Of a DNA stretch of 64,000 nucleotides, positions 2-52,845 are shown piece by piece. Within the stretch, counting starts at the first letter, position 1, and every line of letters starts with the position of its first letter. The notes beneath the pieces were generated by a model, which was not told the origin of the DNA, made no database searches, and saw only the letters and a list, made by a program, of their open reading frames with translations. Made by a program: the position numbers and the translations under genes. Source of the stretch: an uncultured Candidatus Babeliaceae bacterium (GTDB lineage: Bacteria > Babelota > Babeliae > Babelales > Babelaceae); NCBI GenBank assembly GCA_963704655.1, contig OY969927.1:256001-320000 (forward strand), read 5' to 3'.

Positions 2-361
2 ACAGGTGCAGCTATTTCAGTTACGGCCGTTTTGCCTGAATTTAAAAATAGACTTGCAGCCAATGCGCTGCGTGTTCCGGTGCCGATAGTTTCCCTTGCA
101 GATGTTACCTTATTACTTGAAAAGCCGGTAACCGTTCACGATGTGAATGGCTGGTTTGCCGATGCGGCACAAAGTTCATTAAAAAATGTACTGTCTGTAA
201 CAAATGTGCCATTGGTTTCAAGTGATTTCCAGGGTAACAGCAGCTCAGTTATTTTTGATGCTACTATGACATTAGTCAGTGGGCCCCTTGTGCGTATATA
301 TGGCTGGTATGATAATGAATGGGGTTATAGCAACCGGATCAATGATTTTTTAAAAAAATAG
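2..361 (+). CDS. gap: Glyceraldehyde-3-phosphate dehydrogenase, C-terminal part (5' truncated by window)
   Basis: Frame open from base 2: TGAA...RVPVPIVSLAD...LVSSDF...WYDNEWGYSNR, all type I GAPDH motifs. Confidence 0.95.
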   Translation, partial: TGAAISVTAVLPEFKNRLAANALRVPVPIVSLADVTLLLEKPVTVHDVNGWFADAAQSSLKNVLSVTNVPLVSSDFQGNSSSVIFDATMTLVSGPLVRIYGWYDNEWGYSNRINDFLKK

Positions 362-376
362 CGATTCGCTTTTGTC

Positions 377-419
377 GTGTCACCCTGAACTTGATTCAGG
401 GTCCACCTGTTAAGTTATA
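377..419 (+). repeat. REP-like palindrome (TGTCA family), left arm of a 43-bp inverted pair with 2037-2079
   Basis: gtgtcaccctgaacttgattcagggtccacctgttaagttata; internal hairpin ccctgaa/ttcaggg; 38/43 match to reverse complement of 2037-2079. Confidence 0.9.
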
Positions 420-432
420 ATCCCCTAATATA

Positions 433-460
433 TTGACTTATTTAAACAAAAGTATAAAAT
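433..460 (+). promoter_or_regulatory. Putative sigma70 promoter for the 521-1980 cassette
   Basis: TTGACT-N16-TAAAAT just inside the left repeat. Confidence 0.5.
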
Positions 461-520
461 CTAGTTAAACATATAAGTTAGAAATTAGTTCCCTGGAATG
501 CAACTAAAAGTAAAAAATAT

Positions 521-1168
521 ATGTTGTTCCCTTGGAAAGGAACCCTAGCACACTGGTATGTGGCAAAAGAAGTTAAAAACAGAGTTTTTAAAAACATTTT
601 GTATGAAAGATTTAATATGGTAAACCATATCTCCGAGGTTGAGAATCAAACGAATAATCTAATTGATAAAGCATTAGATGGCCTTAATTTAGAAGCAAAG
701 TCACTCTTTGTGCTTCTAGATAACATTTCCTCAAATTTCCTTAAAGTTGAAAAAAGCTTAAAAGATTTAAAAGCTAATTTTCCATTTAGAGAGCCAATCA
801 AAAAAAATACCACAAGCCCGAAAATACCAAGAGATGATCATAGATCTTCAAATTTCTTAAATTTGGAATATTATGTGACTGAGCAAGTTCATTATTTAGC
901 ATGGGAAGCGGATGATGAGCCTAAGAATTATCGCTTATTTCTTATTTGTGAAGAAAGTGAGATAGTTGGTTGTACTGGTGTTGGAGAATGTTGTAAATTT
1001 AGTGAGGTTTTTACAAAGAAATGTATCTTTAAAAAAACTCTGGTTGGATCAGATTTACAGACTAAATTAGAATACGCTAAATATTTGACTCAGTTTATTT
1101 ACGCATTTAAAAATTATTTAAAAAATTATCGTACATCGATTGAAGAGAACGACAATCTACCGTTTTAG
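521..1168 (+). CDS. Hypothetical protein with acidic SSB-like C-terminal tail; start uncertain (alternative ATG 617)
   Basis: 215-aa ORF in very AT-rich DNA, ends EENDNLPF; no family recognised. Confidence 0.7.
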   Translation: MLFPWKGTLAHWYVAKEVKNRVFKNILYERFNMVNHISEVENQTNNLIDKALDGLNLEAKSLFVLLDNISSNFLKVEKSLKDLKANFPFREPIKKNTTSPKIPRDDHRSSNFLNLEYYVTEQVHYLAWEADDEPKNYRLFLICEESEIVGCTGVGECCKFSEVFTKKCIFKKTLVGSDLQTKLEYAKYLTQFIYAFKNYLKNYRTSIEENDNLPF

Positions 1169-1263
1169 TAGTTTGTTCTAAAGGTAATTGTTAGTTCTTA
1201 TCTCTGATAAGGACTTTCGGTTTAATTCTCAATTTTTAAATAATTTTTTATAGCGAGATATTG

Positions 1264-1980
1264 ATGCATTCAAAAAATATTTTACCACAAATGAGCTGGA
1301 AAAAAGTGAATCTTTTTCAGCAGTGTCGTCGTTGTTTTTATAAAGAGCATGTATTGCAAATGAAAAGGCCCGGTATTGATGCTGATTCCTTCTCACTAAA
1401 TAATGCAGTTGATGTTCTTTGGAAAAATGAATTTGATGTTTACCGTGCAAAACAAATTGCGCACCCCATTATGCTTGCACATAAGATAAATGCTGTCCCA
1501 TTTAATCATGAGCTTGTATTTATGTGGCGAGATTATAAAGCTGGTGGCATCAGATTCGTCGATCAGGTTAACGGCTTAGAGCTTTATGGAATTATTGATG
1601 ATATTTGGATTAATGAAAGTAAAGAGCTCATTATTGTTGATTATAAGGCAACAGCAAAACATAAGCAGTTTATGACATGGCCAAATAAGAACAAATGGGA
1701 TGATAGCAATAAGCGGCAAATGGCTTTTTATGCAGCTCTTCTTAAAAGAAGTGGGCATAAAATATATAATAAAGGTTATTTTGTTTATAGTACAGCGCTT
1801 AAAGATAAGCCTCTTTTTAATCAAAAACTAGAATTTGAAAGCTGTATCAAAGATTGCCCAATAGATGATTCTTGGATGGATTCTACTATGCGAGATTTAC
1901 GGTATTGCCTAGATCAGCCGACAGCTCCAGAAGCATCAAAAGACTGTGAATTTTGTAAATATGAGCTTAATCAGCATTAA
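1264..1980 (+). CDS. PD-(D/E)XK nuclease family protein (RecB/Cas4-like fold, Cys motifs)
   Basis: SWKKVNLFQQCRRCFY, LYGIIDDIW, IIVDYKAT, RQMAFY, C-terminal CEFC. Confidence 0.85.
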   Translation: MHSKNILPQMSWKKVNLFQQCRRCFYKEHVLQMKRPGIDADSFSLNNAVDVLWKNEFDVYRAKQIAHPIMLAHKINAVPFNHELVFMWRDYKAGGIRFVDQVNGLELYGIIDDIWINESKELIIVDYKATAKHKQFMTWPNKNKWDDSNKRQMAFYAALLKRSGHKIYNKGYFVYSTALKDKPLFNQKLEFESCIKDCPIDDSWMDSTMRDLRYCLDQPTAPEASKDCEFCKYELNQH

Positions 1981-1989
1981 TATAGCTTG

Positions 1990-2034
1990 CCCTTCGATAT
2001 GCCGCTCTCATAGAGCGGCACTCAGGGTGCACGG
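1990..2034 (+). repeat. REP-like palindrome (CCTTCGA...CTCAGG family)
   Basis: cccttcgata-tgccgctct cat agagcggca-ctcagggtgcacgg; same ends as 3456-3498. Confidence 0.8.
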
Positions 2035-2036
2035 AG

Positions 2037-2079
2037 TATAACTTAATAGATGGATCCTGAAACAAGTTCAGGATGACAC
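2037..2079 (-). repeat. REP-like palindrome (TGTCA family), right arm of inverted pair with 377-419
   Basis: tataacttaatagatggatcctgaaacaagttcaggatgacac. Confidence 0.9.
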
Positions 2080-2171
2080 CTTTGCGGCATAATTTCATTT
2101 TTTTTAAAATTGCTAGATGCACGGTTAGACAAGAATAAGAAAATACGGTACTCTATCTCTTAGTGTTGGGA

Positions 2172-2248
2172 GGGCCCATAGCTCAGTCGGTCAGAGCAGT
2201 CGGCTCATAACCGAAAGGTCCCAGGTTCAAGTCCTGGTGGGCCCACCA
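2172..2248 (+). tRNA. tRNA with CAT anticodon, most likely tRNA-Ile2 (lysidine)
   Basis: GGGCCCA/TGGGCCC acceptor stem, TCGG-CTCATAA-CCGA anticodon arm, GGTTCAAGTCC T arm, encoded CCA; body resembles Ile2 rather than Met. Confidence 0.9.
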
Positions 2249-46067: not shown

Positions 46068-46211
46068 TGTCATTCCGGACCTATAAGTGTCATCCCGGAC
46101 TTGCCTGTCCGCCATAGCCCTTCGGCAAGCTCAGGAGTAAACCCGAGGTGACGGCTGGGATCTGGGATCTTATACGTTAATTAAGAGACCCTGAGACACG
46201 CTCAGGGTGAC
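46068..46211. repeat. REP doublet with nested palindrome insertions
   Basis: tgtcatcccggactt[gcctgtccgccatagc[ccttcggcaagctcaggagtaaac]ccgaggtgacggctgg]gatctgggatct ... gagaccctgagacacgctcagggtgac. Confidence 0.8.
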
Positions 46212-47607: not shown

Positions 47608-47897
47608 TGTCACCCTGAGCGTGTCTCAGGGTCTTTTTATTAGATTAAAGACTGACAGGGATATTTTTTTTGTAAAAGCGCTTCCACTTTGGTGAATATG
47701 CTCAAATAATCTTCGCGCAAGATTATTAGTGATACCAATATATAAAGTTCCGTGAGGTTTGTTTGTAAGAATATAAACATAATAAATTTTCATAGTATGA
47801 TTTATTATATTGTTTTTTGTTGTTAAAAAAATATTCTTATCATGAAATACAACATGATGCTTTAAGTTAACAAAGAGACCCTGAGACGCGCTCAGGG
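47608..47897. mobile_element. REP-bounded element carrying a GIY-YIG remnant
   Basis: 38-bp inverted repeats 47613-47650 and 47860-47897 (33/38 match), each with a ccctgag..ctcaggg hairpin. Confidence 0.7.
47626..47793 (-). pseudogene. Truncated small GIY-YIG nuclease (YhbQ/SLX1-like)
   Basis: MKIYYVYILTNKPHGTLYIGITNNLARRLFEH...AFTKK; homology ends at an A8 run, C-terminal half with the catalytic Glu is missing, stop lies inside the REP. Confidence 0.85.
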
Positions 47898-52663: not shown

Positions 52664-52732
52664 TGTCACCATGGACTCGTTTCAGAGTCTCTTTATTAGC
52701 GAATAAGATGCTGAACCACGTTCAGCATGACA
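52664..52732. repeat. Empty REP doublet (TGTCA family)
   Basis: tgtcaccatggactcgtttcagagtct-N16-gatgctgaaccacgttcagcatgaca. Confidence 0.7.
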
Positions 52733-52768: not shown

Positions 52769-52845
52769 GGCGGCGTAGCTCAGCTGGTTAGAGCGACGGA
52801 ATCATAACCCGTAGGTCCGGGGTTCGAGTCCCTGCGCCGCCACCA
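52769..52845 (+). tRNA. tRNA-Met(CAT), elongator type
   Basis: GGCGGCG/CGCCGCC paired acceptor (no C1:A72 mismatch), CAT anticodon, GGTTCGAGTCC, CCA. Confidence 0.9.

Follow-up and report, generated by a model that had tools for sequence, protein, structure and literature searches.

The Locus Between gap and tRNA-Met

The analysis concerns a 64,000-nt stretch of DNA (the window, G000:C1:256001-320000) from the genome of an uncultured Candidatus Babeliaceae bacterium, here called the host (genome label G000), which is assembled as a single contig of 1.298 Mb with 38.0% G+C; going by the source names of its close protein relatives, it falls in Babeliales/Dependentiae. Near the start of the window, a hypothetical gene (open reading frame 1, ORF1) and a gene for a PD-(D/E)XK nuclease (ORF2) lie between gap and a tRNA-Met(CAT) gene, as a previous sequence-only reading of the window had described, and inverted copies of a hairpin repeat stand on either side of them. 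These repeats resemble the NTS/SRM repeats associated with Ssn-type GIY-YIG nucleases (Chenal et al., 2025; PMC11893778). With some reserve, we consider the two genes to be probably an accessory ORF1/Cas4-like pair that came from a mobile element, sits in a permissive hotspot, and is framed by NTS/SRM-like repeats belonging to the host. The features of the locus, in window coordinates, are as follows.

2–361, plus strand: 3′ end of gap (glyceraldehyde-3-phosphate dehydrogenase); Pfam Gp_dh_C, E 3.3e-27; homology to the empty site of congeners runs to about 352
353–2118, no strand: lineage-specific segment of about 1766 bp, absent from the gap/tRNA-Met interval of G001 and G002 (from alignment)
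377–423, plus strand: left arm, an NTS/SRM-like unit with a GTGTCAC box, 8-bp stem, 5-nt loop and 21-nt inner extension
433–460, plus strand: sigma-70-like promoter match TTGACT-16-TAAAAT, 10/12 (a consensus match only)
617–1168, plus strand: ORF1, 182 amino acids (aa), partner of the nuclease, of an uncharacterised family; alternative start at 521, giving 215 aa
1193–1215, plus strand: terminator-like hairpin between ORF1 and ORF2 (a pattern match only)
1264–1980, plus strand: ORF2, Cas4-like/RecB-family PD-(D/E)XK nuclease, 238 aa, with conserved cysteines
1986–2036, plus strand: one unit of a second hairpin-repeat family (CCCTTCGATA-hairpin-CACTCAGGGTGCACGG), −13.2 kcal/mol, z −4.5
2033–2079, minus strand: right arm, an inverted NTS/SRM-like unit with the same inner extension
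2119–2171, plus strand: conserved region upstream of the tRNA (GCACGGTTAGACAA...), where homology to the empty site resumes
2172–2248, plus strand: tRNA-Met, anticodon CAT; Rfam tRNA, 71.7 bits

The two arms are 47 nt long and 87% complementary (41/47), with 1609 nt between them; the inverted repeat first seen at 377–419 and 2037–2079 (38/43) was thereby confirmed and lengthened. The inward continuation of the match that had also been noted proved real and reaches about 21 nt past the 8-bp-stem hairpin, with 18 of 21 bases of this inner extension common to both arms. A 26-nt probe taken from the left arm and allowed up to three mismatches found two matches in the window, which are the arms themselves, and none of 100 shuffles yielded two or more. 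Folded as single-stranded DNA (ssDNA), the 8-bp stem and 5-nt loop give −8.4 kcal/mol in the left arm (z −3.6) and −6.1 kcal/mol in the right (z −3.2). Between positions 301 and 1950 the G+C content, taken over 300 nt at a time, is 0.27–0.36, against 0.44 in both flanks and 0.380 for the genome, in agreement with the AT-rich insert described earlier. The promoter-like motif credited to the insert is indeed present at 433–460, but such sites are not enriched over shuffles in the cassette stretch (six found, 8.4 expected). The left arm begins 15 nt past the gap stop codon, and neither arm has a T-run or a terminator-like call. For ORF1, the upstream ATG at 521 is the less likely start, since a start near 617 is seen in the database form and in all homologues.

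A Hairpin-Repeat Family of the Host

A profile built from 20 copies of the repeat gave 25 matches at E < 0.01 in the host genome, and manual curation of the matches at E < 1 brought the count to about 34 units in 24 intergenic spacers. In each unit, a GTGTCA(Y) box precedes the hairpin (8-bp stem, 5-nt loop) and TC follows it; the box reads GTGTCA in 21 of 22 units and ATGTCA in one. In the 22 units compared, pairing holds in 173 of the 176 stem cells, with both-side (compensatory) changes at four of the eight pairs, against 56–99 of 176 in slid controls; the hairpin structure is maintained by selection. Units come in two kinds, doublets of 60–86 bp with a TCTT..GTTAAC..AGAGA centre and units with the inner extension CCATCTAnTAA..., and both cassette arms are of the second kind. 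The 26-nt box and hairpin of the right arm are identical to a unit at genome position 209651, and in the hairpin part the two arms are not each other's closest relatives. A strict pattern found 18 units in the host genome, 9 in G001, 18 in G002 and 6 in G004. The congeners G003 and G005 had none, nor did 35 genomes from 20 further genera of the same taxonomic family, and the pattern when reversed, as a control, gave no match. Judged by this pattern, the family is genus-restricted and host-specific, and the cassette arms are evidently members of it, not a private pair. Rfam searches (E ≤ 1) of the cassette locus and of eight other repeat or GIY-YIG loci of the host genome returned tRNAs only.

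Three further occurrences of the family in the window bear on its arrangement.

46087–46211, no strand: doublet whose left hairpin is broken by an insert of about 55 nt; together with the pair at 47608 it brackets serS
47608–47897, no strand: hairpin pair around a 55-aa GIY-YIG remnant (ORF 47626–47793, minus strand)
52664–52732, no strand: gene-less doublet, 69–70 bp, upstream of a second tRNA(CAT) gene at 52769–52845

The empty doublet at 52664–52732, previously pointed out, is real; its right arm is divergent, and it stands 36 nt upstream of the second tRNA(CAT) gene. Longer gene-less doublets of about 110–120 bp, with the inner extension on both sides, occur in G002 (L146) and at position 354841 of the host genome. 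Doublets can also be interrupted, as by the insert of about 55 nt in the left hairpin loop at 46087–46211, or by a unit of another repeat family in the centre at G000:C1:630079-630164; the 22-nt core of that other family has 54 copies at up to four mismatches in the host genome. Units of the host family precede tRNA genes in G001 and G002 too (L151, L157/L183), and with such units at several loci, tRNA-proximal spacers seem to be favoured sites.

The repeats also frame genes. On rough gene calls (ORFs of at least 90 aa), six pairs of repeat-bearing spacers lie no more than three genes apart, where 1.33 were expected (P about 0.0009, 10,000 draws). Besides the cassette, the framed sets are serS; Maf with Stealth and saccharopine dehydrogenase; a ComM-like ATPase; two peptidases with an unknown gene; and a single unknown gene. 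Ordinary genes thus make up five of the six sets, so that framing is a property of the repeat family, and the suggestion that bracketing is specific to nucleases was not upheld. Framing has been reported as a property of the repeat family for NTS as well (PMC11893778).

Downstream of the locus, the G+C content rises to 0.47–0.49 between 3300 and 3750, where another repeat cluster is probably present; the long ORF called from 3259 runs through a stretch whose translation is like that of the GC-rich repeats (…EPFDNAQDKL…), and the SpoIID-like gene there therefore probably starts later.

GIY-YIG Remnants Between the Repeats

Inverted copies of the family flank a single-domain GIY-YIG gene at two places, at 47608–47897 in the window and at locus L180 of G001, and both genes are remnants. 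The remnant in the window, correctly recognised from the sequence, is 55 aa long and covers positions 2–43 of the 78 of the Pfam model; NCBIfam gave it one sub-threshold match, to a group I intron endonuclease, and the right arm of its repeat pair lacks the GTGTCA box. The G001 remnant is 76% identical to it and framed alike, and there the inner extension of the left arm is a leader that runs into the GIY-YIG start codon. The family is thus one that forms empty doublets and brackets mini GIY-YIG nuclease genes, as the sequence-only reading held.

No intact GIY-YIG gene cognate to this repeat was found in six genomes of the genus. The four members with units (G000, G001, G002 and G004) have 3–10 GIY-YIG matches each, UvrC included, and G003 and G005 have UvrC only. 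In the host genome, inverted GC-rich hairpins of other families, among them the one with the 54-copy core, enclose at least five more mini GIY-YIG genes, at the following loci (L170–L174).

G000:C1 482400–483100
G000:C1 488180–488780
G000:C1 767480–768100
G000:C1 474480–475100
G000:C1 375360–375930

The GIY-YIG element at 767.6 kb is bordered by a direct duplication of about 22 bp, which takes in the last part of the gene before it and the start region of the gene after it, and the repeat type found at 1986–2036 of the cassette locus also flanks other mini GIY-YIG genes of the host genome. The natural partner of the host's hairpin family is most likely an Ssn-type mini GIY-YIG nuclease, present here only as remnants.

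The gap/tRNA-Met Interval in Relatives

The order gap, tRNA-Met, CT398-like gene is conserved in relatives. Between the first two, the interval measures about 50 bp in G001 and G002 and 1810 bp in the host; it comes to about 1180 bp in G003, and is shorter in G011 (about 680 bp) and G006 (about 170 bp). In the alignment with G001, homology to the empty site ends near 352 and resumes at 2119; the segment 353–2118 therefore takes in both arms together with 24 bp on the left and 39 bp on the right. Compared across relatives, as had been proposed, the interval thus lacks the whole arm-cassette-arm segment in two congeners. In G003, whose CT398-like protein is the one most similar to that of the host (76% identity), it holds a ParE-like/ParD-like pair (L092, G003:C3; ORFs 483–755 and 755–979, minus strand) framed by 142-bp direct repeats that are 98% identical (295–436 and 1116–1257), and a degenerate trace of a hairpin unit, GTGTCAC...CAGGGTCC, adjoins the tRNA. 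The gap/tRNA-Met interval is a permissive hotspot, and it provides a clean three-state example (empty, toxin-antitoxin, nuclease cassette) of repeats framing swappable accessory genes beside a tRNA.

No target-site duplication was found at the cassette, the flanks being linked only by a low-complexity TTTTTTAAAA match that 32 of 2000 shuffles equalled; because the empty-site comparison is between species, weak duplications could be missed. In the outer flanks, nothing beyond T/A runs stood out as a direct or inverted repeat, and on this ground the idea that the right flank holds an old duplicate of the gap 3′ end was given up. Neither ORF1 nor the nuclease has a paralogue in the host genome, and the cassette is single-copy. 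It encodes no transposase: ORF1 matched no Pfam (over the cut-off), PHROGs, PADLOC or NCBIfam family, and ORF2 belongs to PDDEXK_1/Cas4-like. The claim that the window has neither transposase nor integrase held for the 21 ORFs scanned, with six giant fibre genes outside that scan. Genome-wide, the Y1 transposase family PF01797 had no match (the control was positive in 6 of 14 reference genomes), rve and TnpB families were likewise not found, and the only tyrosine recombinases are at two loci elsewhere.

Exact contigs in four metagenome runs, which may represent the source sample of the assembly, cover 60–413 and 409–559 (run X2) and 1883–2056 and 2051–2228 (run X1). Metagenome joints of 400–405 to 2049–2056 were considered as excision products and rejected, their sides being 22–27 nt long with foreign letters between them; they are attributed to doublets at other loci or of other organisms. 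The contigs with these joints, from runs X1, X5 and X7 at depths of about 3 to 90, carry both hairpin arms 6–37 nt apart, which suggests that short doublets of a closely similar hairpin are common at other loci or in other organisms of those samples.

The ORF1/Nuclease Pair

ORF2 matched Pfam PDDEXK_1 with E 2.3e-11 (44.6 bits; cut-off 22). Among 22 nuclease sequences, D112/D113, D126-x-K128, Q152 and Y156 (D...DxK, QxxxY) are invariant or nearly so, and C21, C24, C215, C228 and C231 are invariant; the nuclease is predicted to be an exonuclease with an iron-sulfur cluster. The AlphaFold2 model (predicted local distance difference test, pLDDT, 84.6; predicted template-modelling score, pTM, 0.83) gave 18 Foldseek matches in the PDB at E ≤ 0.001 (from 5.6e-5), led by Cas4 (8d3l, 4ic1, 4r5q), AdnAB, RecE, MGME1 and Exo5, with template-modelling scores (TMq and TMt) of 0.14–0.53; a PDB profile/sequence search with the nuclease alignment found no match. 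From its residues and its model, the nuclease looks functional. The TIGR00372 cas4 model scored 23.7 bits against a cut-off of 65, and a search for cas genes at the locus found no adaptation module, the neighbours being gap, ORF1 and the tRNA. Relatives are numerous (4517 of 4546 candidates at E ≤ 0.001), most of them about 40–44% identical and from Patescibacteria. Within Dependentiae, 31 of 261 genomes have a nuclease match at E ≤ 1e-30, and a clade of at least 45% identity is found in 8 of the 261, over four families; its member in G245 has an internal stop. A metagenome locus scan with the nuclease yielded two loci only, 40% identical.

The confident model of ORF1 (pLDDT 84.2) is made up of a four-stranded sheet and two helices, the first of them long. 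Its best fold match among 48,161 chains had Z 4.7, and nothing in the PDB or BFVD reached Foldseek E ≤ 0.001 (all above 0.02); an annealase fold (Rad52/Redbeta/RecT/Erf, a partner of the Red/RecET type) was sought and gave no match above that Z. The ESM Atlas returned unnamed clusters only, some of them phage-labelled (best score 0.91, low recognition), and a viral-contig match to the ORF1 alignment was discounted, being 26% identical and spanning two ORFs. Complex prediction for the nuclease with ORF1 scored 0.00, and no conclusion was drawn from it. The family comprises 259 representative clusters at E ≤ 0.001.

Immediately 5′ of the nuclease gene, an ORF1 homologue (29–37% identical) is present in G001, G113, G231, G014, G198 and G164, the pair occupying a different site in each; none was found beside the nuclease in G075 and G245. 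A search for ORF1 beside nuclease homologues of other phyla (the Candidate Phyla Radiation) gave two matches among 104 further loci, both from Dependentiae. GC-rich inverted repeats flank none of seven related ORF1/nuclease loci, among them that of G001, which has nine units of the same repeat elsewhere. In G113 (L131 6047–10051) and G231 (L132 7888–12159), which belong to different families, the pair is part of a five-gene block of a small ORF, a weakly Rep-like gene, ORF1, the nuclease and an HNH endonuclease gene. The Rep-like protein is 380–393 aa long, 64% identical between the two genomes and matched to phrog_702 (E 2.3e-7), and the block may be an integrated replicon. A LAGLIDADG gene lies 3′ of the nuclease in G001, and neighbours of the nuclease elsewhere include HigBA-like pairs, a GIY-YIG gene, Mrr-helicase and AbiU2. 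The host genome has none of the other genes of the block; given this and the lack of paralogues, the pair is read as a fragment of a mobile or episomal element.

We favour a role in which the pair would process DNA ends when the parent element recombines or replicates; alternatively, it could act in defence or anti-defence. The ORF1 family is uncharacterised, structurally unmatched and travels with a Cas4-like nuclease on what appear to be Dependentiae mobile elements; the pair is a concrete target for biochemistry.

Origin of the Cassette

According to the preferred reading, of an accessory pair from a mobile element framed by the host's own repeats, the parent would be a larger mobile or episomal Dependentiae element that supplied ORF1 and the nuclease. 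The cassette would have inserted into a repeat doublet already present at the site, or into a decayed GIY-YIG element there, or else taken the place of its interior; illegitimate or repeat-assisted recombination could have brought this about. Targeting may not have been needed, for in a compact genome little else than the doublet would be open to disruption between the gap stop codon and the tRNA promoter. Entry into a pre-existing host doublet would make the arms a frame, not the ends of a transposon. The suggestion that doublets act as landing pads is possible on these terms, but the pad may be merely passive, because the doublet would be the only dispensable DNA in that stretch.

Several observations weigh against this account. 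An empty doublet at the exact gap/tRNA-Met site was not seen in any relative, G003 having only the degenerate trace beside the tRNA, and the 18 of 21 shared bases of the inner extension also fit arms that are the ends of one unit arriving whole. The published degenerate SRM motif, run as a regular expression, matched the host genome four times, three of the matches being units of the family (of about 34) and none of them either cassette arm; the label SRM-like therefore rests on resemblance. As to the parent element, the Rep-like assignment comes from one weak PHROG match and found no support in Pfam, NCBIfam or the PDB. The nuclease is 63% identical to its G001 counterpart, where housekeeping proteins of the two genomes are 69–72% identical, and on such identities vertical descent with relocation and transfer are inseparable. 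No fold could be recognised in ORF1, and what the pair does is accordingly inferred.

A serious though unlikely rival is that the cassette arrived first and repeat units settled on each side of it later, their inversion being due to chance. Repeat-bearing spacers do cluster round gene sets in general (the six pairs above, five around ordinary genes), the arms are not closest relatives in the hairpin part, a second-family unit has settled at 1986–2036 too, and units stand upstream of tRNA genes elsewhere. Against such a history, the same inner extension faces inward in both arms, as it does in gene-less doublets, and both arms fall inside the segment missing from the empty site, 24 and 39 bp from its limits; nor was an active cognate GIY-YIG gene that could have spread the repeat recently found in the genus.

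A more adventurous idea, to which we assign a distinctly small chance, is that Ssn-type hairpin doublets are true integration slots that can be used repeatedly. Breaks in one strand at the hairpins, or replication stalling there, would let selfish nuclease-encoding cassettes (mini GIY-YIG, or Cas4-like with ORF1) take each other's place without a transposase, and the end-processing needed to finish such an exchange may come from the ORF1/Cas4-like pair.

It is improbable that the arms are terminal inverted repeats of a composite unit of 1.7 kb that moves as a whole, driven either by the nuclease and ORF1 that it encodes or, in trans, by an Ssn-type GIY-YIG enzyme working on the ssDNA hairpins. 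The layout is that of NTS-ssnA-NTS (PMC11893778), the segment is absent whole from empty sites, and it has its own promoter-like site. The unit is nevertheless single-copy and no target duplication was found, searches of the genome found no Y1, rve or TnpB family and tyrosine recombinases only at the two loci elsewhere, and hairpin repeats flank none of the seven related cassettes, even in G001. Because homologues of ORF1 and the nuclease elsewhere are not repeat-flanked at any of the seven loci checked, an outcome that the sequence-only reading itself had named as refuting, the earlier view of the repeats as ends of nuclease cargo is set aside.

Equally improbable is functional insulation, in which the arms would be kept as hairpins that alter ssDNA recombination or as RNA terminators or stabilisers, and would so protect or isolate the cassette: such a role has been proposed for NTS-gene-NTS in Neisseria, where SsnA cuts NTS-flanked transforming DNA (PMC11893778), and it suits a hairpin under structural selection and a left arm only 15 nt past the gap stop codon, but the GIY-YIG genes tied to this repeat type are all truncated and the arms have neither T-run nor terminator-like call.

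The finding reveals no new mechanism of transposition; the parts worth testing are the ORF1 family and the slot idea.

Comparison With Known Systems

The minimal mobile elements of Neisseria are variable gene slots between conserved genes. The host site is like them in that one slot holds different cassettes (empty, ParDE, ORF1 with the nuclease), and would be unlike them in the route of exchange, which for minimal mobile elements would be homologous recombination in the flanks.

Repetitive extragenic palindromic (REP) sequences and bacterial interspersed mosaic elements (BIMEs) are extragenic palindromes that occur singly or as inverted doublets and can frame a gene, and the host repeats share these habits. 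The 5′ box of REP sequences is GTAG, that of the host family GTGTCA. Unlike the systems of REP sequences and their associated tyrosine transposases (RAYTs), the host genome has no Y1_Tnp family, and the framed genes are not a transposase. The term REP-derived, used in the sequence-only reading, is therefore not the best label: the genome is without Y1/RAYT, and the GTCAT box 5′ of the stem resembles the NTS/SRM repeats of Ssn nucleases. REP/RAYT "REPtrons" are themselves named in the discussion of the NTS work (PMC11893778).

For the nuclease, the nearest described class is that of solo or mobile-element-borne Cas4-like nucleases of pfam12705, which lie outside CRISPR loci, are common in small-genome environmental bacteria and have been recruited repeatedly by mobile elements (Hudaiberdiev et al., 2017; PMC5704561). 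The host nuclease agrees with this class in being a stand-alone Cas4-like gene outside CRISPR, and differs from it in its conserved ORF1 partner, of which the part of that paper available to us makes no mention.

The closest parallel to the repeats is the NTS/SRM class (Chenal et al., 2025; PMC11893778). In NTS repeats a GTCAT box directly adjoins the stem, the core of the stem is CCC/GGG, and there is a C on the 3′ side; as inverted pairs, NTS/SRM repeats flank Ssn mini GIY-YIG ssDNA nucleases, and they form clusters around other genes too. The authors likened the NTS-ssnA-NTS architecture to an insertion sequence, and in N. meningitidis SsnA cuts transforming DNA flanked by NTS and reduces its integration. 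The sole Dependentiae row that we found in the tables of that paper, for Babela massiliensis, has zeros and NO in its count and call fields, taken here apart from the column headers, which were unread. Our literature search found no paper on hairpin repeats or on the ORF1/nuclease pair in Dependentiae.

The host family shares with NTS/SRM an oriented hairpin, the position of the GTCAT box right next to the stem, the CCC/GGG core and the 3′ C, as well as inverted pairs that frame a small GIY-YIG gene, gene-less pairs, NTS-gene-NTS clusters and occurrence in host-associated bacteria (PMC11893778). It differs in that its CCTGAA/TTCAGG stems fail the published SRM search motif, in numbering only about 34 units, in having its cognate GIY-YIG genes as remnants only, and in that the cargo framed is a Cas4-like two-gene cassette. 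The locus is a new example of a known NTS-gene-NTS-like arrangement, not a new mobile element, and it extends the recently described NTS/SRM class to Dependentiae, in the form of a variant motif not caught by the published search pattern.

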